From assembly GCF_036588685.1 (NCBI RefSeq), contig NC_086377.1, positions 15,686,001-15,750,000 on the forward strand: a DNA stretch of 64,000 bases. The letters are read 5' to 3'. This document shows positions 12,049 through 60,348 of this stretch, piece by piece. The notes under the pieces are model-generated. The model ran no database searches, had not been told where the DNA came from, and saw only the letters and a program-made list of their open reading frames with translations. How positions within the stretch are numbered: the first letter of the stretch is position 1; each line of letters opens with the position of its first letter. The stretch is from Mytilus trossulus. Taxonomy: Eukaryota. The translations under genes were made by a program, and so were the position numbers.

Positions 12049-12759
12049 TTAATCACCCGTGTGTGTTCGTACATGTTTATCTCTGCTAGTACTTTGAGTA
12101 AACCATTTCCCGCACACATCACATTTATAAGGTTTATCTCCAGTATGGGATCTCATATGTTTCTGTAGGTCATTACTTTGAATGAATTCTTTTTCACATT
12201 TATCACATTTGTGTGGTTTATCACCAGTGTGTGTTCTTATGTGCCTTTGTAAATTCCCATTATCACCAAATCCTCTTCCACATACACTACATTTATAAGG
12301 TTTATCACCAGTGTGTGTATTGATGTGTCTTTTAAGGTGCATATCCCGACTAAACTCTTTTCCACAGTCCCCACATTTATACGGTTTATCTCCAGTGTGT
12401 ATTTTCCCATGTCTTTTTAAATTGTGACTCGAACTAAACGCTTTACCACATACTTTACACTCGTGGGGTTTATCACCAGTGTGTATTCGCATGTGCCCCT
12501 TTAAGTGCTGACTCATAGTAAATTTTGTACCACATACATCACATTTATGAGGTTTATCACCAGTGTGTGTTCTCATGTGTTTCTCTATGTCACACTTTTG
12601 TAAAAATTCTTTATCACATTCGTCACATTTAAAAGGTTTATCACCTGTGTGTGTTCTCATGTGTCTTTGTAAGTGACCTCTCTGACCAAACCTTTTACCA
12701 CAAACTTCACACATAAAAGATAAATCCTCGCTGTGTGCTCTTTTATGTTTCTCAGACAT
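12049..12759 (-). CDS. C2H2 zinc-finger protein, 236 aa, 8 fingers; paralogue of 691-1533
   Basis: Eight CxxC...HxxxH units with TGDKP linkers. Acceptor context at 13121-13122 (CTGAATAAGA on the plus strand) matches that of the first gene. Degenerate finger sequence lies between 12760 and 13120. Confidence 0.9.
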   Translation of the reverse strand: MSEKHKRAHSEDLSFMCEVCGKRFGQRGHLQRHMRTHTGDKPFKCDECDKEFLQKCDIEKHMRTHTGDKPHKCDVCGTKFTMSQHLKGHMRIHTGDKPHECKVCGKAFSSSHNLKRHGKIHTGDKPYKCGDCGKEFSRDMHLKRHINTHTGDKPYKCSVCGRGFGDNGNLQRHIRTHTGDKPHKCDKCEKEFIQSNDLQKHMRSHTGDKPYKCDVCGKWFTQSTSRDKHVRTHTGD

Positions 12760-13630
12760 GATATTGACTTATAAAACCTTTACAGCGTATATCACTTTAA
12801 AAACCTTAAATCCAGTATGTGTTCTCTTAGATTTTCTCTAACATATCACATCCAGGACCTTATATATATATATACAGTATGTGTTCTCTTATGTGTTCTC
12901 TAATTTTCAACAATATGCATTCACCACAATTTACTTATGATTATTTCGAAAGTATGAAATCTTGCGTGATCTTGAATAAAGTGATCTATAGTCTACAATA
13001 TGGTCTTATACATGTATCATGTATATATATGGAGCATCTGTATTTAGGTGTTAAACTTTTTCTTTAGGTTCTATGTGAATTTTCTTCCCTGCATTTTGGT
13101 TTCTCCAACAGGCTTGCATTCTGAATAAGAAAAGATAATCATTAAAATTTGAAAAGTACCACGATTTGTGCAAAAGTTGAGATGCAAGTGCAACATAAAA
13201 CTTTGTGTTGAACCATGGAAGTAATATTTAAAAGGAATAACATCGACTATAATTAGCATGTATAAACGGCCTGCAGAGCCCTGTACTAAATTCATATGAT
13301 TTTAGTGAATTGCTTTAAATATAAAAAAAGTACGTAGAATTCATAGTAGATTCAGACTTTAACATAAGATTCCAACAAATATATTAAATGATCTATTTGA
13401 GTATTAAAATTTAGTCCCTTTTTATTTAAAATTACAATCCATTGAAAAATGAAGCACAAGGCTGATGTGCTTTTGACCAGTTTTTCTTATTCTACATGTT
13501 CTATGTCGATTATTTGTTTTATTTTCAAAATTCAAGTGTACGCCCGGGGTTTTTGACGTAAACGTAGCTACGCGCATGGATTAGGACAATTTAATGAGGG
13601 TAGTAAAAGGGATGCCTGCACGGAAAAAAT

Positions 13631-23888: not shown

Positions 23889-24689
23889 AATATAGTTGTG
23901 GACCAAATGAATAAAAATTATTAATTTATGTTATTGTTAATTGATATACATTGTAAATCAAATCTACATCCACACATTCAAGTACAAATATGAATAGTTT
24001 TGTTACGTCTTAAGTTTTTATGCGATGCTTTGTGTTTATTGGTTTTATCCTTTTTTCGTTTTTTTTAATCATGGTATTGTCCGTTTTATTGTTTATTTTC
24101 TTTCCCAAAATGCCTCGTATCTTCGTTCAGATGTACATCTACATGCAACGGTTTAACATTTCACTACTCGTAAATACTACCTTTGAGCTACTTGCATGTT
24201 TACGTTATGCACATACTTTTTTTCATGTTCCACCCCTAACAGTCCCTAGTTTGCGACCCATTCAATATTCAAGTCTGACAATTACTGCAAAATAATAAAA
24301 ATTAAAGCATGTAATCATTCAAACAAAATGTTCTTCCTTTGTAAATATAGCCTTGAGATTTCAAGTTAATTTTTTTTTTATTACACGTTTTATTATTAAT
24401 GATAATTAAAAGTAACGCTAAATATGAAAAAGGAAGATGTGGTATGTATCCATTGAAAAATCTCTCCATACAAGACCGGATGACACGGAAATTAACAAAT
24501 AATTAGGTCTTCAACAATGAAAAACACACTATGTAGTCAGCTAGCTAGAAAGGCCCCTGCATGGAAAGTGTATTTTAGATTACCTCAGCTGTATTTGGCA
24601 AAACTTTTAGGAATTTTGGTCCTCAATGCTCTTCAACTTAGTACTTTATTTGGCTTTTTTTTTTTTTTTTTTTTAACTTTTTTGGATTC

Positions 24690-24736
24690 GAGCGTCACTG
24701 ATGAGTCTTTTGTAGACGAAACGCGTGTCTGGCGTA
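24690..24736 (+). ncRNA. Type I hammerhead ribozyme motif (partial retrozyme copy ~24578-24775)
   Basis: GCGTCA-CTGATGA-GTCT tttgt AGAC-GAAA-CGCGT-GTC-TGGCGT: intact core, stems I and II, GUC triplet. Confidence 0.85.
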
Positions 24737-26229
24737 TATACTAAATTTAGTCCTTGTATCTATGATGAGTTTTTTTACCGATTCAAACGAGAAAAATTAA
24801 CGGAATGATTTTTGTACAATATAATGAAAGAGAAACCAATATGATATACATCAACAAACGAGTCGACAACACTGAATTACATTCTCCTGACCTGAGGTGG
24901 GAGTTTGGGTTATGCTAAGTTGAAGGCACATACCCTCCCCTTACCTGTATTAGTGGTGTAGCAGTAAAGCATAATAACAAGCTATATATAGAAACCAGTT
25001 GAAAAGGGCCGAACTAATCAGATCAATACAGAGCAAAGATACATCTAACAAAAACACAACCCGTACCTGGAAGAGTACTTATACATCACCACAACCAATA
25101 AGGAACCAGGGACAGTTCTTATAGTACTGTACTCGCAACCACTTACAGCTAGTTCAAAAGCAAAAAATAACTAGTCTTGCATCTAAGACTTACAAATGTA
25201 CCTATCATTTAGTACACATACAACAGCAATGTAAAGACGTCATTAACAATTAGACCTTCAAGTTGTACAATGACAATCGACAGATTGTAGAGCTAAATGC
25301 ACACTTAGGAGTAAAAAGGCATATGCTCTTTATGAAACTAATTGGGTGTTTTTCTTTTTTCTTTTTAATATTTAATACTTTTATTAGTACCTTAGTTTAA
25401 ACAGTAGCTACATTTATTATACTCCTTAAACCTTTGTCTTGCATCCACTACAATTTTTTTTTAAGTCGATGAAAAAACATTCACTGCGAAAAACAAACAA
25501 TTTGGCATTCAAAAATAGTTTTTATTTTTGGTTGAATTATCTTTTTAAGTTCATATTAAAGAAAATTTACTTGAAGAAGTAAACACTGAACGGAAAATTA
25601 GAAAATTAGGTTGACATTGATTCATGTTCAATAAACAAAACAGGGTGAGGTGGAAATAAATTAACTTAAAAAATGTAGTAACTCAAACATTTCAAAATTC
25701 TCAAATCTAATATAAAAAAAAAGTTTTCCGAAGCAGTTGAACATGTAGAAATGTTTGCAATTATAAAATTATCATTTTCGGCCATAGACTGTCCTAATCA
25801 TTATTCTTAATTTTGAATTTGCCAACATTTTCCTAAATTGTCAAAAAACAAAAATTTTGATTGACTCAATGTAACAACTGCGTAAAAATGAAAATTGACA
25901 ATTTTATTGAATAATCATGGTCTAGTTATAAGTAAAATAAATGTGGTATATATAGATAAGAGTCCAAAGCTCGAGGACATATTTCGAACATTGACCAGCA
26001 GATGACATACGGTGAAATTTTAAAATAACGCAATTTAACTTTTAACAGATAAAATCTTATTATTAAAAACAAAGTACTTGTATAGGTTTGAAGGCTATAT
26101 TTTTATAAATGCCTGCGGAAATTATCATTGATACCGCTCTTCTCCGTCAAATGATAAAAATATTTTATGCTTATATATAAATATACTTGGTGGTTTTCGA
26201 AAACAAGAATAATTCAGCATAGGGGAAAC

Positions 26230-29200
26230 ATGTATCTCTCATTTATTTTCATATCTTTTATAATTGCGAGTTCCGCCGAGTACTCGAGATGGCGATATTG
26301 GAGAAGAGCGAAAACAATGGATATTTATGTTAGTCCGTGTGGTTCTGACAAAAATGAAGGGTAAGCAGAATATTCCGTAATTCAAGATGAAACTGCGCAG
26401 TCGCTTGTTATATACATTTTTTCTTGACTGATGTTTCTTATAAGATGTTGAAGTTTGTTTTTTGAAAGACGACACCTCCAAATGATAGTGCGAATGGAAC
26501 ATTCGTATACTTGGGTTACATTCTTGTTCTAACATGTTTTATAGACATTTTTAGATCAGCACGGTCAAGGTCAAGAATGTATTTCTACATTGTCAGTGTA
26601 CATAAAATATTCATTCAGAAGTAGAGTTTTTTTTATAAGAAATATGAAAGGATAATTATGCAATATTCACCCACGACACAAAATCCGTACATGCATTACA
26701 AAACACTTAAAAAAGCAAAGAAACAGTGTTTGAATTGTTGTTTTTCATGTAAAAGTCACAGTGATGCCTTCAACAAGGAAAAACACGTAAAAAATAAACT
26801 CTATCTCAGATGCAAGTTAAAGACTGCCCCTTGTACCGAAAATGGCGGTATTCGTCTAACAAAATAATTCGGATAGACTTTGTCAGGCCTTTGAAAATAC
26901 CTTAGTCTACACACTTCCTATCTACTCTACTTGTTGTCTAACAGGAGACAGGAACAAGCACACATATTTCGACCTACCAACAAAATGCATATAGTCACTG
27001 TATTATTCCGCACTATTATTGAAATATTGTCTGAGATCACAGCTACATGTACAGCAAATCATGCAGCTCGTTTATTATGGCTTTTACGTATTTTATGTTT
27101 GTTTTGTCAAACAATAAAATTGAGAATGGAAATGGGGAATTTGTTAAAGAGACAACAACCCGACCATAGAAAAAAAACCCAGCAGAAGTTCACCAACAGG
27201 TCTTCAATGTAGCGAGAAATTCCTGCACCCGGAGGCGTCCTTCAGCTTGCTCCATAACAAATATATACTAGTTAAGTGATAATGAACGCCATACTAATTT
27301 CCAAATTGTACACAAGAAACTAAAATTAAAATAATACAAGACTAACAAAAGCCAGTGGCTCCTGACTTGGTACAGGCGCACAAATGCGGCGGGGTTAAAC
27401 ATGTTTGTGAGATCTCAACCCTCCCTTATACCTCAAGCCAATGTAGAAAAGTGAACGCATAACAAAACGCACATTAAAATTCAGTTCAAGAGAAGTCCGA
27501 GTCTGATGTCAGAAGATGTAACCAAAGAAAATAAACAAAATGACAATACTACATAAATGACAACAAGTCCACTATTATTTGTTTGATATATGTATTTGAT
27601 CTTATTTACACAGAACGAGTAGCGGGTCCCCTATGAAGACAATAGAACATGCGCTGTCATTAATAAATACTGATAGTTACAAAGGAAACGGTGAGTTAAT
27701 TAAACGTTGCTAAAAAAAAACTAAAAATAACAACTATAAATTAGTGTAACCATTATGAACAAAATAACAACTATAGATTAGTGTTAAATTATTATGAACC
27801 TGCAATTCGATTATACATGGCATACAATGGGAAATAACTCGCATTGCAACCACTAGTAACAGGTAGCGACTGTTTTCGTACAGCAATGGAACCATCCCTC
27901 TTATGTTTGTGTTTTTTTTTTATCAAGAATTGTCTTTAGTTTTTAAATTCATTTTTTCTGATTTAGTGTGCACTTGCTCTTACCCATATGATATTATAAT
28001 GCACGAGAAGTGTTTGAACTAACCGAAGGGTATTCAAACTCACAAGTCGATTTCAAATACCAAAACACTACAAATACCAAAAACACTACAAATACCAAAA
28101 CACTACAAATACCAAAAACACTACAAATACCAAAAACATTACAAATACCAAAAACACTACAAATACCAAAACACGGCAAATATCAAAAAACGACCAACAG
28201 ACAATTTAAAGTATACAACACACTATAAAACACTGATGGCTGAGCAACACGAACCTCACCAAGATCTGAAGTTGATCCTGAGTATTATAGCAGGGTAAGC
28301 AGATCCAGTTACAAATTAGACACCTATCGTGTTGCTCATTTAAGTAGAAAATATCAGTAGTTTTATAAATTTTCTTTGTAGTTCTGTGCTCCACGTAAAT
28401 GTATGTATGAATGTGCCGGTGAAGAATCTCATGTCGTCACGTTTCAATCCTTCAATACCTTACATTCAATGTTTCAAATATTTAATTACTCTCATCGGTA
28501 TCACTTACTTTTTTCTTGTAATGGTAGTAACATTTCTTTTTGGAGAACAGAATAATGATATATTTTACTCAAGCAACATATGAAACAGATGATGATAATG
28601 ATGGTCATATGTACCTTCTTTATTTAGATATTGTAATAGAATTGATGTGTGGAACTTGTGGACCTACATGTTACTTTGATCTAAAGTCTACTTTAGTCAT
28701 TACAAACAAGGAGTCCCGAAAACTAACCATCCGAACAAATAAAACAGATAAAGTTCGAGTGGTACGTATATTCTAAGACTATCTTAATTTGATTATTTAT
28801 TTTGATTAAATATTTCATTTAAATAACCTGGAAAAAGTGCAAGAATTCAAAATACTATTGCCACTTTGTCTTTTTGTTCTTAAACCATGATGCTCGTTTT
28901 CATACACGTATCTTAAAGACTATCTAACATCCAGAACAGACGCAAGCAAAGATTACTCGCAGTTACTGTAACGATCTCATAGCACATTGAGCAACACAGG
29001 CACTTGTCTCAGAATTTTGTTTTCTAACACAAGTGTATATTAATGTTCAGCAACTAGATTTTTAAAATTTTTTTATGAGACAAATGCCTGTGTTCAGCAA
29101 CTAGAATTTTATTTGATTTAACTTGGCATTATATTATCTTCAACAAGAATCGAGGTGTGCACAAAGCGTGATCCTAATTCATTTGATGAAATGTATTCGA

Positions 29201-32200
29201 TCATTTTAACTTTCAGACAGGAGGGCAACGGATACCTTGGAACAAGTTTAAACCAGTTAAATACCATAAGAAAATACCACCCGCTGCACTTAAAGTGGTA
29301 AGTGGAAAAGTGTTAACTAGTTACCAGCCATGAAAAGTTGTTGTCTGTTGCACTGAAATCGGTAAGTGGAACAAGTTTAAACCAGATACCGGCCATGAAA
29401 AGTTGGTGTCTGTTGCATGGAGCGTCACTGATGAGTCTTTTGTAGACGAAACGCGCGTTTGGCGTATATACAAAATTTAGTCCTGGTATCTACGATGAGT
29501 TTATTTACAACCACTGGGTCGATGCCCCTGCTGGTGGAGATTAATTTCCCCGAGGGTATCACCAGACCAGTAGTCAGAACTTTTGTGCTGTCATAAATTA
29601 TAATTGATATGGTTATATTTATAAATTAATTGTAACGGTTTACAACATTTTGAATTTTTGAAATTTTAAGGCTTTTCTACCTCAGGCATAGATTACCTTA
29701 GCTGTATTTGGCAAAACTTTTAGGAACTTTGTTCCTCAATGCTCTTCAACTTCGTACTTTATTTAGCCATTTAAACTTTTTCGATTTGAGCGTCACTGCT
29801 GAGTCTTTTGTAGACGAAACGCGCGTTTGGCGTATATAATATACAAAATTTAGTCCCGGTATCTTGATGAGTTTATTTGCACTGAAAACGGTAAGTGGGA
29901 CAAGTTTAAAAGTTACAAGCCATGGAAATTTGTCGTCTTCTGTACTTAAAACGGTAGGTGGACCAAGTTTAAACCAGTTACCAGCCATTTAAAGTGTGAT
30001 CTGCTACACTAAAATGGAAAGTTGATAAAGTTTAAACCAGTTACCAGTCGTGAAAATTTGTTGTCTGCTACTCTTAAAACGGTACTTTTTTACTCCGTAG
30101 TATCTAGAGTATATTAATTTTCGACCGGTAAAATACTTTGTGATAGGACGTTCTGGCACTCCGTGAATTAAGAATAACCAGAAGAAGTTTAATCAAGCTA
30201 TTAAGTGGTGCAGTTTCGGAAAAAAAGCACTGTTTTATGTGTTCTGTATATGAACAAATCAAAATAAGGTAATTTAAATATGTCATGAATGTAGACAAGC
30301 TGACTCCAAACAAAGAAAGTATGCTCCTTAGTTAAAACGACGAACAAAAAGGGCAATAAGCGTTTGTTTTACACAGTTTTGCTTTAGTTTTTCATCCTTT
30401 TTCCTTTTTGCCAAACTTGTCTTGTATTACAGTGCTGCTTTAATTACTCATTTTACACAATGAGAGAATGGGTCGTACGCTGACCAAGACAGAATATCTC
30501 TGTCTATCTCATCTCTTATTTGAAATTGCCGTGACAGTAAAACTTTTCCCCGTAAAAATATACTTATGCCTGGCATTTTTCTGTTTATGTGTAGGTACAA
30601 CAGGTGTCGTTACCAGATGTTGGCATAACAGACTTGGGAGAAATGTCTACATACGGGTATTACACCAGGCGTACGTCTTGGTTGGAAATCTTTGAAAATG
30701 ATCGACCTCTGACCTTAGCAAGATATCCAAATGAGGTATGTCAAATATATCTATTTGTCTCTTTGTTTATTTTAATAAAAGTATTTAGATTTGTTATGGC
30801 TGCATTTATCTATCATTTAAAACTATTTTAAACTTTACGTCAGCCTCAAGCTAATGATATGTGTAATGATTTTCATCAAATGATTATGTATTCCACTTTA
30901 AAAACAAATGAACTTTAGGGGACGTGATGGATGTATGTTTTTACTGAACACGTGCATGGTAATCTCTGTCGAACCAAAATTCAAAGTAATCTACAGAACG
31001 AGGCAATAAAAAAAAATTAAATAATAATTTTATGCTTGTTTACTGTGTGTGTTTCTACGAGAATGAAAACAGGCAACAAGTAAGTTTTTGAATTACTTTG
31101 AGTATATCAGGTTAGAATCGATCATGATCAGACTTTAAATTCGGGAAATTTATCGAAAAGTGTATTTATGTAACCTCTGTTCCTTTCGAAAATAATGTTG
31201 GAACGTAAAATCACAAAAATGCCGATCACCGAGGAAATTCAAAACGAAAAGCCTCAAATCAAATATACTAGTATCTAAAACACACCAAACGAATGGACAA
31301 CAACTGTCATATTTCTGACTTTGTACAGGCATTTACAAATGTAGAAAATGGTGAATTGAACTTGGTTTTATAGCTATCTAGACCTCTCACTTGCACTTGT
31401 ATGACAGTCGCATCAAATGTATTGAATTTTATTTGATCTTTTTGATTGAAGGGTTATATCAACATCGACAAACCAGGTGCGGATGGTCAATCGTTTCATT
31501 ACGAATCAAAAGAACCATATAAATGGATTCCGGAAGACGATCTCTGGGTACATGGATTCTGGTAAATAATATATATATAATATAGAGGCCCTTCATGGGG
31601 GTGTCCAAGGAATGACATAATCACAAATGTCCTGCTTTTATAATCACATAATCATATTTTTTTTAAATAAAATAATAAAATAAGCAAAAATACAGTCCCA
31701 GATTATCAAATAATCAAATAATCATCAAATATTTGGACTTTTAATCAAATAATCACTATGTAAAATCGACAGAGTAATTACATAATCAAAAACCCCATCA
31801 TCAAGCTGTGCCGACCTATGTTACATACTACTGATATTCAATGTGATGTTAATGTGTAAAATCGTACCTTGCAAATAACGATTATTTGGACAGTGCTTTA
31901 AAATTCAACACACTAGCTTGTTTTCATGGTTTAAATATAGTCATCATAGATACCAGGACTACATTTAGCATATACGCCAGACGCGTGTTTCGTCTACAAA
32001 AGACTCATCAGTGACGCTCGAATTAAATAAAAGTTAAAAAGGGCCAAATAAAGAACGATGAGTTATAGTATGCAACCCTGAATTTAAATGTACAAAGCTG
32101 TGTTCTGTTGAAATGAATTTTTGTTAGTATGCATTTTAATTCTATCATATTCATGACCATGCTTTTTCTGCGATTTTTTTGGAGAATTTTTGTTTGATTT

Positions 32201-35200
32201 TTTTATGTAATTTGAATGTCAGAAATTAAAAAAGAGAGATACACGTGAAACATGAAATTATTTATATAAAATTTTGAACATTTTTCACAGGTTCTGGAGC
32301 TGGGCTGATAAAGCTTACAAAGTTGCTAAGTTTGACCCCAAAGGTCAATGGTTGTCAGTCACAGAAAAAGTCATGTACGGAATGAAGAAAGGTAAACATT
32401 GACCTTTTGATGCTAAGGAGTCCATTTGTTATTTGTTTTGGGGAAGTAATTATTGTGCGGTAAATGGGTTTTTGCACATTGCCAAAACCCCATTGTTACC
32501 TGTATCATTGCCGAAACCCTATTGTTACCTGTATCATTGCCGAAATCCTGTTGTTACCTGTATCATTGCCGAAACCCTATTGTTACTTGTACGTGTTAAC
32601 TTTTATATCAGTTGATATCGGTAAAGAGTTGACTCATTGCGTAAACCCTCCAGTGGGTGACTTAGCATGTTGTGAAGAGGAGAGAAAAATATTCCTTGGT
32701 TGCGGGCAATGATTGCTTTACCAAGAATATAACAACCCACATTGAACTGTGTCAACAATCAATGTCAGTTTTTAAATCTTATACCACAAAAATTATATAT
32801 ATAGAATAACCATACATTGTCTCGAAATATCAATGTTATTTGTACGAGGCTAAGAAACAGGTAGAAAGCGAGGCTGTGCCGAGCATTTCTACCTGTTTCG
32901 AGCCGAGTACAAATAACCGATTGATATTTCGAGACAATGTATGGTTATTCTTTATATGCTGCAACTCTTTAAACGGTTTTAAATGAAATATTTAGGGTAA
33001 AAAACATCATTTTTTTAATTTGAAGCGGACGACGTAAAATTTCCGCGAACCTGTATGTTTTATTGACGTTATAAATAAAACTCTACAGAAACACATTGTC
33101 AACGTCATAAACAAGGTGATATACGTTCAGTGACTGTATATCACATATAAATAATACAGTCAATGCAATTTGACTGCTCAAATAGGACAGCTGCAGTATA
33201 TAAAACAATACATCTTTAATATTAAACAATTAGCGCTATATTACCAGGTTCTTTCTATCCACAATTTTTCGACATCAGAAAATGTCTGTCCAAGTCAGGA
33301 ATATGACAGTTTTTGTCCATTCGTTTGTTGTGTTTTATTATTTAATTTTGCCATTTGATTTGGGACTTTCCGTTTTGAATTTTTCTTTGAGCTCAGTATT
33401 TTTGTGAATTTACTTTTTACAATATTTTTGTGTTTTGTTTCAGGGAATTATAACGAGAAAAATCCTGGTTTGGTAGATTACCATAATCAAGGTGGCTATT
33501 TCAGATTTGTAAATGTGCTGTCTGAACTTGACCAACCTGTAAGTATTACCTGCTACTTCGTTTCGATGATACACAAATAATGACCAACGGTGACAATAAT
33601 TTACGCTAGTTACATGATTGTTTAAGGATTCAATACTTTTTTTCAAGTCTCAACACTCCATTCCAATACATTTAATATTTTTTTCTGTCTATGAAGAAAT
33701 AACATGAAAAATTTGGTGCACACTGAATAACGTGCGTATGTTATTTCGAATAGACAGAAAAAAATATTACAGTCATTTCTTATAATTTAATTCTAAATTC
33801 CATTTTAAACGTAGAAAACCACGAAAAAACGTTGATGACGTTACGGTCACATGACTAAATTATGTCTATGGGCTCATAACAAAATAACGTCAGCCAATCA
33901 GAAGACGCGTCACATCGAAAGTTAAATTATTCCAATATAAAAAGCATATAAAGCATTGCGTATAACAACGTTTAAACGAGCTTTGATGATCACTAAAACA
34001 ACTAAACAAAATAAAGGAAAATCAATTAAAGGAAATGAATTGAAAGTAAAATAACAAAAACAGTCCGAGGATAATTCGAAACAGAAAGTCCGTAGTCAAA
34101 TAACAAAATCAACGCTTATTTTTCGATAATTAAGATCCAATCAACAACCTTGTATTTTATATTTCATCTAAATTTCTCAATCTTTCATATATCACGAATG
34201 TGCTCATCCGTTTTTTCTGTCACAACTTACATAGTAATATGCTCCCGAGTAATTAAAAGTGACGTTGTTGTATTCATTAGGTTAAATTAATTCCAATTTA
34301 CTATTTGACAGAACATTCCCCCCCCCCCCCCCCCCAAAAAAAAAAGAAAAAAATAATAAAAAAGAAAAACGAACACAATCTTATATTATGCAAATTGTCT
34401 CTTTATTAGCTAAACATTTGTACATTTATATTTGATTATTTCTAGGGTGAGTTCTATGTGGATAGGAAGACTAAAATGTTATACATATGGCCCTTGAAAA
34501 ACGCTCATTATGCCAAAGGTGACGCAATAGAAGCTTCTATTATCGACACGTGCATCTCGTACGTATATATTTATCCTATTTAGCATTTTACACATTTTCA
34601 GAGGCAGATTTGGGGGGGGGGGGGGGGGCAGGGGTCCAGGGCCCCATTTTTGGGAATACATTTGGTTGCTTATATAGGGAATAACTGAATCGTGACTGGA
34701 GCGGGCCCCCTCTTATATAGGTCAGCCAGAGCGCCCCCACTTATGAAAATTCCTGAATCCGCCACTGCTTTTTACATATATTTGATTCGTTCTGAAGATT
34801 CAAATGTCATCTTTATCTTCATAGTTGGAATATAAAAAGTTCTAGCTATCATCGAATGAAGGGAAATCATTTGATTAACGAAAATCAGTGAATTTAAAAA
34901 AAGAATGTTTTTTGTAGAATATATAAAGATTTGGCTACTTTCGAACGAAAGGAAATCTTTTATTTTTTTTAAATATCTGCACGTTTGTCTGTTTTTATTA
35001 AACATCCATGAAATTATGTCCTAGTACTAGGTACAATTTTTCACTAAGGGAGACACTATTTTATAGTTTACAAATGTGATATTCTGTCCCGTGAACGAAA
35101 TATCACAGATGAACTGTGAAATATAGTTCAAGAAGACACACGATCTAAAACTGAATATTTTCTTGCAGAATTTCAAAAGATTCGGCTAATATCGTACTTG

Positions 35201-41200: not shown

Positions 41201-44200
41201 GTTTATCCTTAAACCCCTAACTATAGATGGACTGGTTTATTATGAGCGAACCGGTTAAACTCCGCCCAGTCAAGTGAAATACATTGAGTAATATTCATAG
41301 TATATATAGGATATGAGTCTTACATGAAAACAATTTTTTTTAATGTTGGGTGCTTAAAAAAATAATCATTATGTATGAGTTGTTGATTATTTGATGTCAT
41401 CATTTCTCATCTTATATTGGTTACATGAGGTAATTAAACTGTCAAACCAACGGCAAACATGTATCGAATGCATTGTTAAGTAACGTCATTACTTTATAAG
41501 ACATTACCACAATTGTCAAATAAAGATTCGGAATATTGGACATTCGCCATGAATGAAATCATTAATTCCTTTGTTATCTTCATATACATATATATAATAA
41601 CAGATTTTCCATGATAGCAGTTCAATAATTTGTGAGACGGGGTGCGTTATTCCTGATAACTGAAGATACAACGCAGAGCTAAAAACGACAAAACAATTTT
41701 TGCACGATATTATATTTAAAATGTATATATAACATGTATAACGTTTCAAATAGCGTCCGCTTCGTATCTCCAGGATCCGTCACTGTTTGCTAAGAAATAA
41801 GTATCAATGCCTTTCATATTACATCTACATCAATTTATAAGAAGGCAATACACTTTTAGTATATTTGATTTAATCGATTTGATTTGTTCAGAGAGGAAAC
41901 ATCATAAGGAAGAATCATATTCAGCGAACTAAAAAGAATGTTCCAGGAGCAGATGTACGAGGAATTATGTTAGACGATCAGTATTCCAGTGCTTTGATTG
42001 AACAAAATGTGTTTCATGACGTAAGTTACTGTATTCAAGTTTTCCTGTTGATATAAACATCAAATATTGTTTTTTTTTATGCATAACGTTAATTGTACTA
42101 AAAAGTCAGATATATGTTTAATAGAACTGTCGTTGTTTTATTTCACCACCACAGCACGGCTAAACCACAGAAATACTTTCGAAAAATAAGCATGATTTTG
42201 TTTCTATCTTACTCATTAGGCTTCTGCTTAATAGTTTAAAAATGAACAATACAATGTAACTGAATTTAGTCGCAAAATAGTTAACGTCAACGAGAGACCC
42301 AAATTATGAACGCCATGACTGCGTTATTATAAATGATAGTCATTATATGCAGTGGTCACACCACTATATGCAGCCGTGACAGAATTATTTACATGAAGTG
42401 GTCATAACATCATATAATGTAACCACTGCAAAAAACGTTGTAACCTCTGCATATAATTATGTTGAGACCACTTTATATAATGCTATAACGGGTATATTAT
42501 GCCGTGACCACTGTATATAATGCTATAACGGGTATATTGTGCTGTGACCACTGCATATAATGCTATAACGGGTATATTATGTTGAGACCACTGTATATAA
42601 TGCTATAACGGGAAAATTATACTGTGGCCACTATATATAATGCTATTACGGGTATATTATGCTGTGACCACTGTATATAATGATGATCATCAACATAAGG
42701 CAGACGTGGCGTTCCATACAAAATGACAACACAATAAAGCGTACATTTCCAAATATTCATTCTGTAGCTCAATGGGGCAGTTATTCAAATATGAAAAAAA
42801 AGATGTGGTATGATTGCCAATGAGACAACTCTTCACATGAGACGAAATGACACAGTTTTCATAGGAGAGAACGGTGAAAAAAACGCTTGATGTTAACGTC
42901 ATGTATACACAACAATTTAAAATCTAAATAATTCTAATAGTTGAACCAAACAAGCTATAATACTATAGAATTTAAAATGCTATTAGATGCAAATCATTTC
43001 AAAGTTATATCTGAAGTCGATGATAAGTTAATATTTAGTCTACTACGTCATCAAGTTTAACTTGTGTTATTAGAACAAGTCGATAAGTTGATATTTAGTG
43101 TACTACGTCATCAAGTTTAACTTGTGTTATTAGAACAAGTCGATAAGTTGATATTTAGTGTACTACGTCATCAAATTTAACCTGTGTTATTAGAACAAGT
43201 CGATAAGTTGATATTTAGTGTACTACGTCATCAAGTTTAACTTGTGTTATTAGAACAATGCACATATAATCATTGGTGGAGGAAGAGATAACATAGTTAG
43301 ACAGAACATATTCAACAAAGATGTGCGATACTCAATTAAAGTGGACGCCAGAGGGGCTGACGGGAAATCTAATACAAAGACACTGCTGGAAAAACTAGAG
43401 GTAAGTTAGATGAGTCGATGGGACAGCTATACAAAGGCAATGCTGGAAAAACTAGAGGTAAGTTATATGAGCCGATGGGACAGATCTACAAAGGCAATGC
43501 CGGAAAAACTAGAGGTAAGTTAGGTGAGCCGATGGGACAGCTTCTACAAAGGCAATGCCGGAAAAAACTAGAAGTAAGTTAGATCAGCCGATGGGACAGA
43601 TCTACAAAGGCAATGCTGGAAAAAAAAACTAGAGGTAAGTTCGATGAGCCGATGGGACAGGTTCTACAAAGGCAATGCTGGAACAACTAGAGGTAAGTTA
43701 GATGAGCCGATGGGACAGGTTCTACAAAGACAATGCTGGAACAACTAGAGGTTAGTTGGATGAGCCGATGGGACAGCTTCTTCAAAGGCAATGCTGGAAC
43801 AACTAGAGGTACGTTAGATGAGCCGATGGGACAGCTTCAACAAAAATAATGCTGGAAAACTAGAGGTAGGTTAGATGAGCCGATGGGGCAGCTTCTACAA
43901 AGGCAATGCTGGAAAACTAGAAATAGGTTAGATGAGCCGATGGGACAGCTTCTACAAAGACAATGCTGGGAAAACTAGAGGTAAATTAGATAAGCCGATG
44001 GGACAGCTTCTACAAAGGCAATGCTGGAAAAACTAGAGGTAGGCAAAAGCAGCAGGTAGGACAGATTTAACAAAAGAAATTTTGAGGTAAGCTAGAGGAG
44101 CTGATTAGATAAGGTTTTACTAATGTAAGACTGGAAAGAGAAGAGGGAAGGCTGAAAAGGAAGGTTTTTCTAATGTAAGACTGGAAACAGAAGAGGTAAG

Positions 44201-47200
44201 GCTGAGAAGAAGATGAAAAAGGTTCTACAAAAAGTAATGCTGACAAATTAAAATGAGAGGTATACCATAAATGCAGATGGGAAAACTTATAGCAAATCTA
44301 AAGTAGAAAAATGAGAGATGTAAGCTAGAGGAACTGATGGGAAAGGTTTTACTGAAGTAATGCTGGAAAGATAAGAGATAAGATAGAGGAGCAGACATAA
44401 AAGGTTTTACAAAAGTAATGTCGGAACAGGTAGAGCTATGTTTGAGGAGCAGACAAACATTTGGGAAAGGTTTTACTAACGGAATGCTGGAAAGATAAGA
44501 GTTAAGATAGGTGAGCCGATAGGAAAGATTTTTAATTCTAGAAGGTTAGAGGTATGTCACCGGATCATATGGGAAAGGTTTTACTAACGGAATGCTGGAA
44601 AGATAAGAGTTAAGCTGGGTGAACCGATGGGAAAGGTTTTTAATGTTAGAGGTATTTCAGCGGTTCATATGGGAAATGTTTTTGAAAAGTAATATTAAAA
44701 AGATTATAGGTAAGTTAGAAGAGCAGTCGAGAAGGTTTGAAAATTGTAAAGCTAAAAGGTAAGAGGTATGTCAGCGGAGCAGAATGGAAAATCCTTACAA
44801 ATGTTATGCTAGAAACGTAATCCTTGTGGAGGTATAGTGCTTCAAGAAAAAATACCATTGAACTTGGAATCTTAAATATTAACTGATATGATATTCAAGT
44901 TAAGAGACTCCCGTATCAGACTAAACAATCTTCCAAAAGACCGATATGTGTTATTGGAAAATGTCATTGTTTTTACCAGAACCGATACCGGCGCATTTTT
45001 CGAACAGATGACTGTGTCGAGGAACACAGGCAATTACGAAACTGTATAGTGAAAGTAATAGTTACTGTAATAAAAGTGGCATGTTGTAATATATTGTTTC
45101 AATATATTCAACCTCGTCTTCCGTATCAGATCGCGTCGGTGGTGTGGTTGTAACTCATACACTGGTCAATGTTTCATTGACACAAATTGTTCAAACAGAG
45201 TTTATGTAGAACGGCTGAATTCCACACTACATAAGTTTTACGATTTTCATTTCGAAACGATTAACGACGCGATATGTAGACCTGTGAATTGATTTCCTAC
45301 CGACATGTTTAAACGGTCTTATGTTTTATATAGTTATATTATTGTCGTCTTGCCTATGAATGTATCGAATGTGTGTTTATTTGCACCTTTAGGGTCATCT
45401 GGTCTTCCTGCTTTTGAAATAAATGCGATTCGAGATTTGAAAATCATTGATTTGAAAATTAATAAACTACTGTTGCTCTTACGGTCCATAATGTCATTTA
45501 TTGAAATGTAAGAAATCAAGCGGTATTTGTTTTGACGTTTACTTTTCAAACGAGACAAGACTATGGCTCACAACGGCCCATAGGAAAAATATGATTTTTA
45601 GAAATAATTCTTTGCACTTTCTGTAACAAGCGTCACAAATACTCCACAAATTAAATTAGGGGCTAAATATACGAGAACATTAGCTGTGTCAGCTGTAGAA
45701 AAAAGCAATGCTACCATGGATATTTATAAATAATAATGTGATATGATTTTTAATCATTTCAGAAAATTCCATATAAAGATAAACTATGGGCAAATAAATA
45801 TCCTAAGCTTGCTAAAATCATGGATGGAAATAACCCAGGAAATCCTGTTGGTGAGTAATTATCATGATAGGGGGGTTGGGGTTAACCTTGATATCAGTAT
45901 AAATAAGTTTTAGCAGGGGCAATGTATGTATGTACTTCGAGATTCCGCCAATTGAGACGCACTCCTTGATTTACGGATCCAAGTACACTCCCTAAGGATT
46001 AATGGAGATGTGTTCTTTACAATATAATCCCACCACCAGAACAATCCCCTCACAACACAAAGGGAGCGTGTAGGACACTGGGAGACTGTTATTATGGGGG
46101 AGGAAGACGAAGTACTCGGATTGAACCAATGGGCTTATCGGCAATGGCCATAGTAGTATTGTTATATTTGAGCGGGTTTGTGTTGCTAAGTTTTTCGTTT
46201 TTTATGTTGTATCTTGTGTACTATTATTTGTCTGTTTATGTTTTTCTTTATTAGCCACTGCGTTGTCAGTTTATTTTCAATCTATGCTATCTATCGCCCC
46301 TCTTTTATAAAAAGTGTAACTTACTCCATTGTTTTCAGAACTATAACTTTTAAATGTTTGTTTTATAATACTTTCCACTTCTTTGGTAATGATGGTTCAT
46401 TTTAACTGTTTGATTGTAGCACCACTGATGCAAACCTGTAGTAATTCGTTTTACCTAATTTCTATATTTCGTTTGAACAATCACATAATCATGCAACTAT
46501 GAAGTATATTATTTACACTTAAAAAGCATCTTTATGGTCACAGGCCGAATATGCCAAGAGTTTTAAATTCTGTTTCTAATATCCTCTCGGTAGACATTGT
46601 CTTTAAGTATTACTCATTCGATAAAAAATATCCTTGTAAAGCAATTTTTTTTAGTAGTGACTGCAAATGATATATTGAAACTGAACAATTTTAACGTCGA
46701 CGTTTAGAAATATAAATACACAATTTATTGTTGGTTTTGTTTTTTTTACCAAATTTGTCATCGTGTTCCTGTGTTATTGAATGTTATAACGCCTCTCACA
46801 CACACATGCGAATGAATTAGAACAATAGCAAAATGCGACAATTTAATAGCGTCTAATATTACATTGCATTCCAGCTTAACATAGTCACATTTTGATATCA
46901 GACACCTTCGTTCATTGTTTATAAAAATATAATCATTATAAATATATTTTGTAGGTAATGTAATCGAAGGAAACATATTCTGCTCTATAAAACACCGTAT
47001 TGATGGTAATAAATTTGTCACTGAATGGTTCAAGGTCGATGGTAACAAAAACGTGAGAAAAATAAAATATTTTAAAATCAAAATTACACATTATTATTTT
47101 GTAGGTCTGGAAAACTTTTCCGGATTAGGCATCACCTAAACATGCAAATCTTGCCACCGAGCACTTACAGAGATCTGACAACTCCCCGTCCTATTTTCAA

Positions 47201-50200: not shown

Positions 50201-52017
50201 TTTACTCACACAGAGACCCACGTTATTTATTATTTTCTCTTACGCAGTGAACTACCAAAATATTTAAACAATTGTGTGCAAATGACAATTTATTTCCAAG
50301 CCATTTGTATAGTTAAAAACTTATAAGAGCATGACTTAATTTTGATTTTAGAGAAAAAAAGCTATCAGTGGTAAAAAACTGATTGCATCCTCGGATATGC
50401 AAGGTTAAACATTCCCGCTGAAGATAAATTGTCCTGTGCTGTCTTTGATAAAACACCTTGAAAAATTAGAATTCACAGGCGTGAAATAAATACAAACTTA
50501 TTGTAAAATGTACTGAAAAAGAATAATAACAAAAAAAATCCAGAATTTTATATAAATCATCATTATTTTGAGAGGGGTTTCCAGAAGAACTATGAAGTAT
50601 CTTATACAGGACAGTCGCGCAATCTGTATCACCTATTAAGGACGCTATTCATTTTATTTTGTAAGTAGGGAAATTTCTGCGAGATTAAATATCGCTATAT
50701 AGCTATAAAAAAAATTCCCTCACAAACAATTTGATCTCAAAATTAACATCAGTAACACGAAAAGTACAAAAATTAAACCTAGCAACATGCTTAGTTCCTA
50801 TCTATAGAAATCATAAAATAAAAACTCCGCAAAAATGTGGAATATAACGTCATTTAAACTATTATGGTACCTGTATATTTCAGCTGAAGAACCACTGCCA
50901 CTAGGTTATAAGACAGGAAATGAACCTGCACCTAAACCTTGTGAAGGAAAACGAACAATAGACTCGTTCAATGATAATAACCTGTATAAAACTTTAGGAG
51001 AACTTCTAGATGAGGGTAAGCACAGTTGGTTTAACTAAGTAAATTAGTAATGTTACAACCAGCACAGAGATAATCTGGACTGTCAATGTGGTCTTCACAC
51101 AACGTATGTATTACTTAATGTAACAATTAGAAAAAGAAAAAAAAACAACAGGAAAATTAAGAAATAAAGAAATAAAGTATTTATTTCGTCAACAATCACA
51201 TTCATAAGTTTTAAAATTTACATACAGTCACTGTGTACAAATCCTAGTTCTGACGACCTAACATAAAGTGGTTCACAAAACTACAGAGAGATAACTCTCT
51301 AAAAACCAGAAGAACGTTTTACAAGTTTCTATTATTTAGGAAATAGCTTCTTAACATCAAACATAGTGTTTGTCCAACTGCTATGTTAACATTGAACTGT
51401 TTCCGGTTTATTGAATTTTTCATATATTTTATAAAGACAATTATGAAAATTAAACAAGTAAATATGGTATTATCACTAAACTCGTCAAATAATTCGTTAT
51501 ACGAGTTGTAACAATGATACAAATATGTTCCACATTCATGACTCATTTTACGTTAAAGTCTGATTTCCTTAAAATTGTGATAATTATAGGGAAACACTTA
51601 AAAGTAACACACATTTAACGATTAGTCATCCCGAAATTGGCGATTGAATTATAATAGGAGTTATTGCCCTTAAGTGATAATAATAATTCATGTTTAGAGT
51701 TGATTTATTTGAGACAGAACATGCACGTGATATGGATTAAACTTATTCACAATCTCACTGAGAGTATGAAAGATTGAAGTCGATCATTGTTGTAAATGAT
51801 GTTACGTATATAGTTATCAAAGGTATCAGGATTATAATTTTAAACGTCAGTCGCGCGTTTCGTCTACATAAGACTCATCAGTGACGCTCAGATCAAAATA
51901 GTTGTGAAGCCAAATAAGTATAAAATAGATTATAATGCACATACTGGTAAGTAATTTCCTCTTATGGAAGTCTTTAAGTTTCTTAACACGATATCTTATG
52001 TTTCAGATTGGTATTAG
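26230..52017 (+). CDS. Secreted right-handed parallel beta-helix (pectin-lyase-like fold) protein, 739 aa, 20 coding exons
   Basis: Exons 26230-26360, 27614-27690, 28628-28761, 29217-29297, 30595-30735, 31452-31561, 32291-32391, 33444-33538, 34446-34558, 35169-35293, 35999-36085, 38790-38962, 40911-41006, 41892-42020, 43254-43400, 45763-45850, 46955-47052, 49346-49496, 50884-51015, 52007-52017. All introns are GT-AG with compatible phases and the 2220-nt frame is open. Motifs: IYVSPCGSDKNEGT..PMKTIEHA, LTLARYPN, VHGFWFWSWAD, NVLSELDQPGEFYVD, GNDHIFEYN, DCGALMSGRDWTWRGNIIRKN, GIMLDD, IGGGRDNIVRQN. AATAAA at ~52203. Confidence 0.88.
28057..28175. repeat. 17-18-bp minisatellite
   Basis: TACCAAAA(A)CACTACAAA, about 6 copies. 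Confidence 0.85.
29238..30084 (+). repeat. ~64-bp tandem repeat made of the exon-4 3' end plus its splice donor (6 copies, one interrupted by the retrozyme)
   Basis: TGGAACAAGTTTAAACCAGTT...GCAC...GGTAAG repeated; the first copy is the true exon end. Confidence 0.85.
29419..29878 (+). mobile_element. Retrozyme-like unit: two hammerhead motifs in direct repeats, 368 nt apart
   Basis: ~87-bp direct repeats at 29420-29506 and 29788-29878, each with CTG(A/C)TGA-GTCT..AGAC-GAAA-CGCGC-GTT-TGGCGT. Inserted into a minisatellite unit with TTGCA on both sides. Confidence 0.85.
31974..32019 (-). ncRNA. Type I hammerhead ribozyme motif
   Basis: Reverse complement GAGCGTCACTGATGAGTCTTTTGTAGACGAAACACGCGTCTGGCGT; core intact. 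Confidence 0.85.
32479..32592. repeat. ~31-bp minisatellite (3-4 copies)
   Basis: TTGCCGAAACCCTATTGTTACCTGTATCA repeats. Confidence 0.8.
32803..33203 (+). mobile_element. Hairpin element (32803-32951) with CGAG/CGAG bubbles plus a GACGT-rich tail
   Basis: Inverted arms AGAATAACCATACATTGTCTCGAAATATCAAT / ATTGATATTTCGAGACAATGTATGGTTATTCT. The tail is bounded by TTATATGCTGCA / TGCAGTATATAA. Confidence 0.75.
33673..33930 (+). mobile_element. Degenerate hairpin-plus-tail element
   Basis: Arms TAATATTTTTTTCTGTCTAT / ATAGACAGAAAAAAATATTA (33673-33769), followed by a tail with TGACGT and CCAATCAG motifs. Confidence 0.6.
34599..34767. mobile_element. MITE, same family as 7623-7936
   Basis: CAGAGGCAGATTT...GAATCCGCCACTG; flanks ATTTT/CTTTT (4 of 5 match). 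Confidence 0.75.
35278..35418 (+). repeat. ~27-bp tandem repeat of the exon-10 3' end plus donor (~5 copies)
   Basis: AGAATTCAAAACATAG|GTAAATATTT repeated. Confidence 0.8.
35543..35848 (+). mobile_element. HINE-like element with (TCCG/TTCG)n microsatellite
   Basis: T-run start, CGTCCGTCCGTTCGTT tract, GGGGCATCCGT...CACATTCTTGTTTT end. A related copy lies at ~38990-39250. Confidence 0.65.
37163..38120. mobile_element. PIF/Harbinger-like non-autonomous transposon
   Basis: TIR AGCCTCGGTCACAC / GTGTGACCGAGGCT extending ~45 bp, TAA TSD on both sides, dense TCCGTT/AACGGA subrepeats. Confidence 0.85.
40298..40684. repeat. 26-bp minisatellite (~15 copies)
   Basis: Unit ACATGAAAAATATCGTGATTTTTATT. 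Confidence 0.9.
42445..42682. repeat. 40-bp minisatellite (~6 copies)
   Basis: Unit TATAATGCTATAACGGGTATATTATGCTGTGACCACTGTA. Confidence 0.85.
43017..43258 (+). repeat. 60-bp tandem repeat containing the exon-15 splice acceptor (4 copies)
   Basis: Near-identical units ending TGTGTTATTAG|AACAA; the last copy is the true acceptor. Confidence 0.9.
43352..44800 (+). repeat. ~57-bp tandem repeat of the exon-15 3' end plus donor (~12 well-conserved copies, then decaying copies)
   Basis: TACAAAGGCAATGCTGGAAAAACTAGAG|GTAAGTTAGATGAGCCGATGGGACAG versus exon TACAAAGACACTGCTGGAAAAACTAGAG|GTAAGT. Confidence 0.9.
47544..47890. mobile_element. Tc1/mariner-like MITE
   Basis: TIR CACCTCATCGCTATTTA..TGGA / TCCA..TAAATAGCGATAAGGTG with TA on both flanks. 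Confidence 0.7.
48330..48842. repeat. 30-bp minisatellite (~17 copies)
   Basis: Unit TTATCCTTTATCCATGGCACGATGAATGTT; accounts for the three repetitive ORFs in the track. Confidence 0.92.
49621..49875. mobile_element. MITE with 6-bp TSD (hAT6-like)
   Basis: TIR CATACCTGCCAACT / AGTTGGCAGGTTTG, flanked by GCTATG on both sides. Confidence 0.8.
51844..51889 (-). ncRNA. Hammerhead ribozyme motif with altered cleavage triplet (GAC)
   Basis: Reverse complement GAGCGTCACTGATGAGTCTTATGTAGACGAAACGCGCGACTGACGT. Confidence 0.7.
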
Positions 52018-57627: not shown

Positions 57628-57745
57628 TATAAATCTAATAAGAGCATTTAATCAAATCGGTGAACATACATTTGACGGTGAGTGCTTCTTTAACTTTCAA
57701 TCTGGTGAAATGACATTTAATTTATTTGGTTGATCTTTATTTCAG
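57628..57745 (+). promoter_or_regulatory. Candidate TATA box, short 5'UTR exon and 68-bp 5'UTR intron of the TLR gene
   Basis: TATAAA at 57628; donor ACG|GTGAGT at 57678; acceptor TTTCAG at 57745, 12 nt before the ATG. Confidence 0.45.
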
Positions 57746-57757
57746 ATAATTCTTGAA

Positions 57758-59902
57758 ATGAGAATATACATCATTTTTGTGTTGACGGTGTGTATTCTAA
57801 ATATAGGCAAAGGGCTTGTAATGCAAAAGGAATGCCACAAGAATTGTAAATGCACAATTACGCGTTCAAAGAAACGTCAAGCTGTATGTAGGGGACGGGA
57901 TTTGCATTACATCCCACAATTTCCAGAATTGATACTTTCTGTTATTATGAGTGGAACAAATTTGACGAATATTGATAAAAATGGATTCAAGAATTTGACC
58001 TATATTAGACTGAAAGAATTAACATTAGATAACAATCTTATTACGTTTATTAATGAAGATGCATTTGTCAATTTAAAATATCTGGATAGTTTGAGTATTG
58101 CTCAAGAAACAAATCTAGCAGTGAATGTAATTAAGGTATCCGTTGGGAAAATGAAAACAAGAAATCTCCGATCTTTATATTTTAAAAATAATAACTGGCT
58201 TTTCCTTCCAGTCGATATGTTTACACGTTTTGCATACAGTGAAATACGAACTATTGGAATGTATGGTAATAGTTTGTCCGAACTACAGAGTGCGATATTT
58301 TCACCATTAAAAAAGTTGCAAAAGCTGTATATGAATAAAAATGAGATTGAACATATTGATTTAAAAGGCATTTCAAAGGATTTAGTAGATTTGCGTTTGA
58401 ATGAGAATCTTCTCCCAAAGGTTCCGGAATTGTGTACAAAGGATAGACGAGGTAGCAGTTTAGTAAACAAATTAGAAACGTTAGATTTAAGCGATAATAA
58501 CATTGGGGACATAAGAATAAAAGCTTTTCAATGTTTGCCAAATTTGAAAAAGCTTTTACTCAATAGAATACCAATGAAGAGAATTCGGTCAAATATATTT
58601 GCATCCCTCCCAGTTTTGTATTCTTTACAACTCTCGAAGATAGGATTTCCTTTGCAAAAAATAGACGATTATGCGTTCAATAGTTCATCTCTTTCACGTC
58701 TGCTTATGGACGTTGCAAATTTCCATTTTGATCGAGAGGAGTTTAATCCACAGACTATTTTTTCAATGTCACCAAATCTAAGTTTTCTAAACTTAGACCA
58801 TAATTTTTTGCCTAAGAATGAAACAAAGATGCAACAAATATTTTCACCTTTGGTAAGCCTGAAAAATTTAATAATATCCTCAACAAGTCTTTTTATTCTT
58901 CCAAAAAATGTCTTCCCGTACTTAAAATCACTCGAGAATTTGACCCTAAGCTCAAACAGACTGTCAGATTGGAATGACGGTAGTGAAATATTTCGGAATA
59001 TGACGTCTCTTAGAAACCTCAACCTGAAAGATAATTTCCTCAAAATTATAAACAAAAAAACTTTCCCTGCAGACGTACTCAAGTCATTAAAAGTCCTGGA
59101 TTTGAGCTATAATTCGTTTGTATGCACGTGTGATCAACTATGGTTTACAGAATGGGTTAAATCAACTAAAGTAAAGCTTCTTAGTTATCCAACGCTATAT
59201 AAATGTAGGTCACCACCAGCGCTTGATGGAACGTTACTTCAAAAGTATGTTAACTCGTCTAAGGAGTGTCCCCCATGGAATCCTATGTATACCACGGTAA
59301 TTATCTTGTTATTGTCTGCTGCGGTATTAGCTGTGATATTTTCGATACTAATGAAGTGTCAAACAAACATTAAAAACTATTTATACCTATGGAGAATCAA
59401 TTACAACAGAAGAAAAGGTTATCTCCCCTTGCAGGATGCAGATGATTTCGAATATCATGCATTTGTTGTATATTGTGATGCAGATCGCCAATGGGTTCAC
59501 CAAAAGTTTCTAAAGAAACTAGAACAAGATGAAGGAATGAAACTTTGCATTCATCATAGAGATTTTGAAATCGGGGAATCAATTACTGCAAACATCAATA
59601 ACTATCTCGAGAAATCATGGAAAGTGGTTGTTATTTTATCAAATGATTTTGCGAAGAGTGAATGATGTCAATGGGAGGTTGATGTCGTCCAAGAGCGCAG
59701 GCGTAGACAAGGAAGGGATGTATTCTTATTGATTATGCTAAAAAATATCGACTCTAAGCATATGACGAATCAACTCAGAGCCCTTCTAGACAGTGCATCA
59801 AGTCTGAAATATCCAATTGGTGTAGGTGAAGAACTGTTCTGGACGGCAGCAGTAGAAACACTGAGAAAGCCATTAGGTCATCCACCGACAGCATTGTTAT
59901 GA
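57758..59902 (+). CDS. Toll-like receptor (single cysteine-cluster type) with a premature TGA at 59663-59665 in the TIR domain; possible pseudogene or nonsense allele
   Basis: Signal peptide, LRRNT (CHKNCKC), multiple LxxLxLxxN LRRs, LRRCT (NSFVCTCD..C..C), a TM helix, and TIR (YHAFVVY, LCIHHRDFEIG, VILSNDFAKSE*CQWE...FW). The frame stays open for 78 codons beyond the TGA to TGATAA at 59900; full length would be 714 aa. Confidence 0.92.
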
Positions 59903-60298
59903 TAAGTGTACCAAATCTAAATATGCATTTTAGAATTTGTTATACAACTGTGTAACAATAATATTTCATAATGTGAGCATTGAGGAAACATTTTCTATGA
60001 TGGTTATTTGATAATTGATTCAAATGCGTTTTGTAATTGTACTTGAATTGTTAGGAAAAAAACCCATATATAATTACAAATACATCTGGTTTAAAACCAT
60101 GTATCTTGAAAAAAAAGCTGTTAATCAACTTGTATTATTTTCCCTAGGATATTCTATTGTTACTTACTTCTATGTCAATATGTCTTTTGGGGAGCGTTGT
60201 ATATATATCCTACAATATGCTCTGTTTTAAATATTTATTAAAGCATTCCAAGATTATTTTTAGTTCGTTCTTTATTTGGTCTTGACCTGTTTGAATTC

Positions 60299-60348
60299 GA
60301 GCGTCACTTTTGAGTCTTTTTGATGTAGACGAAACGCGCGTCTGGCAT
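60299..60348 (+). ncRNA. Degenerate hammerhead/retrozyme remnant
   Basis: Same flanks as the other copies but the core reads CTTTTGA. Another degenerate minus-strand copy lies at ~62304-62344. Confidence 0.6.

Follow-up and report, generated by a model that had tools for sequence, protein, structure and literature searches.

Retrozymes are recognised by a unit of 150–450 bp (350–390 bp in mussels), a GC content below 45–50% and no protein-coding capacity; a target-site duplication, when present, is longer than 4 bp. They are further marked by the absence of LTRs, of a primer binding site and of a polypurine tract, and by a circular monomer that pairs with itself. Their internal sequence is species-specific. 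The closest described system is that of Mytilus galloprovincialis, for which Cervera and de la Peña 2020 (PMC7229834) report ~5000 hammerheads of type I, which form two similar families and lie in 350–390-bp repeats. According to the same paper, the repeats cleave at ~0.1 per min and give abundant circles, and a 353-nt clone was circularised by RtcB; a preprint names a 375 clone. Mussel circRNAs are deposited in GenBank as MN642551–MN642576.

Penelope-like elements (PLEs) and vertebrate retrozymes provide the other points of comparison. [quoted passage not shown] In Xenopus, 42–44% of retrozyme copies overlap introns, and eight of nine genomic dimers do not cleave in vitro (10.64898/2026.07.22.740005, in the text available).

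Here, a locus from Mytilus trossulus is compared with these systems. The best explanation as a whole, to which we assign a probability of about three in four, is that it is a copy of the known mussel retrozyme, inserted by a Penelope-type route and largely unable to cut itself out.

The hammerhead motifs and the layout of the unit

The window is the whole 64,000-nucleotide stretch of M. trossulus DNA that was analysed. The locus has the following features, all on the forward strand.

29217–29297 (+): fourth coding exon mapped in the host gene (protein match, tblastn and frame check)
29238–30086 (+): minisatellite of 63–65-nt units, derived from the host exon's 3′ end together with its 5′ splice site
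29413–29417 (+): TTGCA, left target-site duplication (3–5 bp) or microhomology; a minisatellite unit is split in register
29418–29876 (+): retrozyme insertion of ~1.25 units (sequence, alignment and jump in depth in DNA run X1)
29422–29465 (+): hammerhead 1 (HH1), type I, RF00163 at 28.6 bits; core CUGAUGA intact at 29428–29434, GAAA at 29448–29451
29449–29460 and 29817–29828 (+): 12-nt palindrome created by U17 (folding prediction)
29460–29827 (+): 368-nt monomer between the nominal cleavage sites, 36% GC
29790–29833 (+): hammerhead 2 (HH2), type I, RF00163 at 21.4 bits and alignment; core with A6C at 29799
29828–29876 (+): 3′ tail after HH2, where family copies stop
29877–29881 (+): TTGCA, right copy, whose leading TT matches the element's 3′ end as well

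From 5′ to 3′, the insertion consists of two extra nucleotides (TG), HH1, the internal region, HH2 and a tail of ~48 nt. The direct repeat 29420–29470/29788–29838 (51 nt, 98% alike, spacing 368) belongs to a duplicated segment of ~88 nt in whole, with 82 of 93 columns identical; this terminal repeat represents part of a second unit and not a pair of LTRs. Both motifs have stem I GCGTCA/TGGCGT, stem II GTCT/AGAC, GAAA, ACGCGCGT and GTT triplets, and their cores read CTGATGA in HH1 and CTGCTGA in HH2.

The initial annotation had described two type I hammerheads 368 nt apart, with predicted cleavage after 29459 and 29827, a mutated second core and GUU at both sites. All of this is borne out: stems, cores, palindrome and triplets are as claimed, N17 lies at 29459 in HH1 and at 29827 in HH2 (where the site is nominal), and the second core carries A6C. 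Two of its adjectives fare less well. Helices I, II and III have 6, 4 and 2 bp, the last with a palindromic tetraloop; such sizes are termed the canonical architecture in the available text of PMC4209133, as opposed to the minimal PLE form, so the motifs are not of the helix-III-less 'minimal' type. The word 'complete' overstates a unit with only one intact core.

A search with Rfam Hammerhead_1 (RF00163, gathering score 34), proposed as a check, recovers both motifs but leaves both under gathering: HH1 at 29422–29465 with 28.6 bits (E 3.6e-4) and HH2 at 29790–29833 with 21.4 bits (E 4.1e-3), the latter match appearing only when 161 nt are scanned. At the gathering threshold, there are no matches across the 64-kb window. 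Every family hammerhead that was scored falls under this cut-off, and relatives with C17 and A6 reach 31–33 bits in four of eight cases scored (best 33.3).

The monomer has no meaningful ORF, and no long ORF was found in or beside the unit. A 53-codon frame matches only seven translated repeat copies, all without Pfam domains; the search for an autonomous PLE partner by way of this frame returned only repeat-derived ORF calls. The protein calls P0003–P0009 are spurious products of the repeat, some of which read TGA as Trp across the hammerhead core. As a circle, the monomer folds no more stably than shuffles (61% paired, z −0.27, 41 of 100 shuffles as low); the circular monomer of a tandem relative, L002, is likewise 61% paired, with z −0.77 against shuffles.

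The host gene and the insertion site

An exon query matched two proteins, M. trossulus LOC134719447 (100%) and M. californianus LOC127721850 (91%), and the host exons are ~100% identical to M. trossulus XP_063438512.1. According to tblastn, the host gene lies on the + strand from 26317 to ~51017; its product is a right-handed beta-helix protein (PF13229). Exons 26317–26360, 27614–27690, 28628–28761, 29217–29297 and 30595–30735 have GT/AG borders and are in frame, with no stops. The retrozyme copy sits in the intron 29298–30594, sense to the host gene; the proposed intronic position and orientation are thus confirmed by the exons on either side (29217–29297 and 30595 onward).

The RefSeq protein XP_063438512.1 (582 aa) begins at a Met within the exon that follows the retrozyme intron. 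Exons 1–5 are in frame in the window despite this shorter protein, and the orthologues in M. californianus, M. edulis and M. galloprovincialis carry 128 extra residues. The shorter M. trossulus start may be an annotation artefact or reflect altered splicing.

The units of the minisatellite are 72–83% alike, and the third is interrupted by the retrozyme. Donor-like sites occur within it at 29298, 29362, 29891, 29954 and 30082. The duplication at the insertion comprises 3–5 bp and is partly microhomology. A target-site duplication of 63 nt was considered and rejected, because the two units beside the insert, at 82%, resemble each other to the same degree as other unit pairs. The same gene contains a second exon-derived minisatellite at 43350–44700, with units of ~57 nt that again consist of an exon 3′ end and its 5′ splice site; both minisatellites yield rows of cryptic donor-like sites.

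Abundance of the repeat and a likely empty allele

In DNA run X1, 44,641 contigs fall on 28600–30760. Their summed depth, which is not copy number, is 0.5–2.1 million on the element and mostly 13–57 on the flanks (one flank bin has 2175), a rise of four to five orders of magnitude over 29403–29840; this marks the full length of the monomer as a very abundant repeat. The internal region of the present copy has at least four bases unlike most family contigs (97–99% of X1 depth).

Contigs from RNA runs X15, X17 and X20 cover the element, with none on host exons. Such contigs cannot reveal ends, strand or circles, and as evidence of expression they were set aside, DNA carry-over of a very high-copy repeat being enough to explain them. 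'Goes back' joints were also discarded as evidence of circles; they are present in the DNA run too, and arise because family copies fit HH1 better than HH2. The RNA runs hold no usable evidence for expression, ends or circles at the locus.

An X1 contig over 29811–30153 crosses the right junction with three differences, and the filled allele is therefore present in X1. An X1 contig of depth 13.9 carries ten substitutions at 29263–29296 which, translated by hand, give the exon peptide of M. galloprovincialis XP_076081681.1. The second half of a 274-nt X1 contig, equal in depth, maps to 30011–30153, and the length of the contig fits, to ~5 nt, the exon joined straight to 30011. X1 probably contains a second haplotype over 29226–29344 and 30011–30153, with the M. 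galloprovincialis-type exon peptide. This points to a likely empty allele that lacks the retrozyme and about three minisatellite units, a paralogue being possible. Filled and empty forms would permit an allele-specific test of the effect of a sense intronic ribozyme pair on its host gene.

Relatives within the window and beyond

The unit is not the only one of its kind. A BLAST search with the region reveals five further family hammerheads in the same window, all 5′-truncated, which gives seven per 64 kb:

24576–24778 (+): 5′-truncated copy (BLAST), intact core, GUC
31920–32058 (−): 5′-truncated copy with intact core and GUC, lying antisense in an intron further along the host gene
51808–51917 (−): 5′-truncated copy from the second subfamily, with A in place of U16.1
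60264–60386 (+): 5′-truncated copy, broken core
62253–62385 (−): 5′-truncated copy, broken stem II/G12

An exact 27-nt pattern matched eight metagenome contigs, and pattern scans gave no match in viral contigs or in prokaryote genomes. L002 is a head-to-tail array whose units are 90% alike, with hammerheads 355 nt apart; the array is revealed by self-BLAST and was missed by Tandem Repeats Finder. It is 81% identical to window positions 29421–29840 over 423 nt. The copies form two subfamilies that differ in loop II and tail. N17, a base left free in the search pattern, is C in all 14 other copies that have the position, and U in HH1 and HH2. No two-sided covariation is seen among 14 copies (469–500 of 500 shuffles score as high).

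L003 has copies of different subfamilies at 1672–1845 (+) and 2596–2686 (−), in opposite orientation and ~750 nt apart. In the metagenome contigs L007 (1437–1695) and L005 (2085–2136), retrozyme sequence is joined directly to bacterial-looking genes; with a contig coverage of ~2 by name, these joins are most likely assembly chimeras.

The likeness to the M. galloprovincialis retrozymes (PMC7229834, as far as its accessible text describes them) extends to the genus, a type I hammerhead in head-to-tail repeats, a unit of 368 nt against the described 350–390 (and of 355 nt in L002 against the 353-nt clone), low GC (36%), two similar subfamilies, thousands of copies and no coding capacity. The present copy differs in having only 1.25 units, A6C in HH2 and U17 twice. 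A 14-nt motif is absent from the searchable paper text. The locus is a copy of a very abundant mussel hammerhead repeat, which is likely to be the known Mytilus non-LTR retrozyme. The family match is strong but circumstantial, drawing on genus, size, GC and subfamily number compared with published descriptions. Type I hammerhead, unit size, low GC, lack of coding capacity and a multi-copy distribution, both dispersed and tandem, all agree with a retrozyme. The initial annotation's reading of the unit as a PLE-linked metazoan non-LTR retrozyme is well supported, and the family has apparently already been described in Mytilus.

Vertebrate retrozymes (newt satellite 2, axolotl and Xenopus; 10.64898/2026.07.22.740005, in the part available) share the dimer layout and the weak helix III, and intronic copies and non-cleaving dimers are common among them. 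Their internal sequence is taken to be unrelated, given the species-specificity stated in PMC7229834. By the criterion for an 'active' copy in Li et al. 2026, a complete hammerhead in two consecutive units, the mussel copy does not count as active, HH2 carrying A6C.

Can the present copy cleave?

A6C strongly lowers cleavage in Mg2+ and spares cleavage in Mn2+ (PMC7151607, in the text available). GUU is cleavable, with the highest intrinsic rates for GUC and GUA (PMC3138052, likewise). U17 turns an 8-nt palindrome into one of 12 nt. Because of core topology, each copy in a double hammerhead has its site acted on by the core of its partner, so both sites could in principle be cut by way of the HH1 core.

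Folding predicts that pairing between the two palindromes of the pre-mRNA gives a 12-bp helix in which A13, A14 and N17 are sequestered. When HH1 and HH2 are cofolded, a locked dimer is favoured over the active one by 3.0 kcal/mol, with P(A14.N17) = 0.90; in the fold of the full unit this value is 0.96–0.97, and the productive stem I has P ~0.05. For the natural C17 pair L004×L004, the active double hammerhead is the MFE structure. For the C17 pair L002×L002, a different inactive dimer is preferred by 5.1 kcal/mol; in the two-hammerhead stretch of L002, P(A14.N17) is 0.0 and stem I between upstream core and downstream site forms with P ~0.4. The folding model ignores tertiary contacts, proteins and co-transcriptional folding, and even intact monomers fail to adopt the hammerhead fold in it (p ~0). 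As intact monomers are misfolded and L002×L002 comes out inactive, the 'lock' is a weak predictor.

Polymerase proceeds at 1–3 kb per min. HH1 is alone only during the synthesis of 368 nt, and at a cleavage rate of 0.1 per min less than 4% would be cut in this time. With the 12-bp lock and a C6 core that is weak in Mg2+, the intron would mostly be spliced out whole, and little or no circle is predicted to come from the locus. Judged from these models, the present copy probably cuts little. The proposed release of a 370-nt circle from a complete unit is doubtful, given A6C in HH2 and the predicted locking of both sites by U17. The intronic and non-cleaving dimers of Xenopus indicate that a silent intronic dimer is commonplace.

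Fixed tail and proposed route of insertion

Among 12 terminal copies with flanking sequence, 11 end 41–54 nt past the cleavage site, and L007 ends at +11; this count leaves out L005 and L008, which reach contig ends, and the read-through units HH1 and L002. Loose contig ends occur at 29505–29507 in runs X17 and X20. The mussel tail stops just ahead of ACAACCAC.

Compared with PLEs (PMC4209133, PMC11167929 and PMC8557442, in the parts available), the locus shares the partial-tandem layout, 5′ truncation, a short palindromic helix III and a fixed 3′ end ~45 nt past the cleavage site, beside an AC-rich stretch. It differs in that helices I and II are canonical in size rather than of the min-HHR form, that no autonomous partner was identified for the mussel unit, and that there is no RT or GIY-YIG ORF; its flanks are host intron, so that it does not qualify as an autonomous PLE. 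By analogy with the anole element, the fixed 3′ end is a putative signature of an internal PLE start of reverse transcription. A fixed tail was not found stated for retrozymes in a narrow check of the available literature text; it would tie mussel retrozymes mechanistically to PLE internal initiation.

Insertion into the intron was likely carried out by a Penelope-type reverse transcriptase. Reverse transcription would have begun ~48 nt 3′ of the cleavage site, at the start position fixed for the family, and the insertion starts 40 nt upstream of site 1; the cDNA would then comprise one full unit plus ~90 nt, stopping at the 5′ edge of the hammerhead. As such a cDNA crosses the cleavage/ligation junction twice, its template would have been either circular or a multimer left uncut; the simplest reading of U17 at both sites is that a single template was used. 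At the target, one minisatellite unit is split in register, with the 3–5 bp duplication described above. The duplicated segments differ by five events in ~88 nt, including A6C, and these differences presumably represent decay after insertion.

Alternative explanations

The duplication could instead have been made in DNA, by unequal crossover or slippage in the minisatellite or by two nested insertions, and not by reverse transcription of more than a unit. The site does lie within a tandem array whose unit number seems to vary between haplotypes, and local amplification by unequal crossover is discussed in the accessible text of Li et al. (10.64898/2026.07.22.740005). However, the family monomer aligns collinearly across all 368 nt that separate the hammerheads, the insertion ends in the usual family tail, the two hammerhead copies have no flanking minisatellite DNA between them, and the insertion splits its target unit in register, all of which makes an origin in DNA very unlikely. 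Somewhat less improbable, though still unlikely, is a locus that remains active, the single intact core of HH1 cutting site 2 via the double-hammerhead fold and site 1 as a monomer; RtcB would ligate a 368-nt circle whose C6 core resists re-opening. The intact HH1 core, transcription of the unit in sense as part of the host intron, stem I formation in the C17 control L002 (P ~0.4), and the ~0.1 per min cleavage and RtcB-circularised monomer of the cloned mussel repeat (PMC7229834, text available) speak for such activity. Against it stand the values for the present copy (P ~0.05 for the same stem I, N17 paired with P 0.96), the GUU triplets at both sites and the RNA runs, which contain no locus-specific RNA evidence.

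The weakened sites also invite the reading that U17 and A6C were kept by selection, since an active sense ribozyme would cut the host pre-mRNA. Both sites are indeed weakened in a copy that lies in sense, and in Xenopus, introns contain fewer retrozymes than expected once size is corrected for (10.64898/2026.07.22.740005). Core lesions are, however, found in five of the seven copies that were not preselected by the core pattern; the search pattern fixed A6, and its eight matches are left out of the A6 tally. The lesions are at 51889 (U16.1), 60299 (G5/A6) and 62344 (G12), and at G8 in both the first copy of L002 and the plus-strand copy of L003. Within the window, lesioned copies occur on both strands, two in sense (HH2 and 60299) and two in antisense (51889 and 62344). 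As lesions are common in both orientations, neutral decay suffices, and the earlier suggestion of mutations retained to spare the host transcript is unsupported. A single template accounts for U17 in both copies, and selection cannot be shown from one locus; of the readings weighed here, selection is the least probable.

Significance and other features of the window

The locus is likely an ordinary, decayed copy of an already described element. Its significance is small because a 2020 study already described and assayed mussel retrozymes, and the present copy is one decayed member among thousands. The 3′ end shared by the family and the likely filled and empty forms of the site are of modest value. 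It is very improbable that the insertion is a lineage-restricted one in a sense intron, in which both sites are cut by the one intact core and the circle set free has a dead C6 core that prevents reopening, while cleavage or the repeated cryptic donors disturb host splicing. If this were true, the start of the M. trossulus RefSeq protein just after the intron would be a trace of disturbed splicing, and animals with filled and empty alleles would offer a ready allele-specific test.

The window also contains C2H2 zinc-finger arrays, a Toll-like receptor (LRR + TIR) and VOMI-domain exons, at 694–1572 (−), 12052–12768 (−), 57734–59899 (+) and 62416–63609 (+). The TIR part of the Toll-like receptor runs on in another frame near 59662–59899. 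An inverted repeat at 32797–32957, with 38-nt arms that are 97% complementary and inner arms of 17 nt, is MITE-like.
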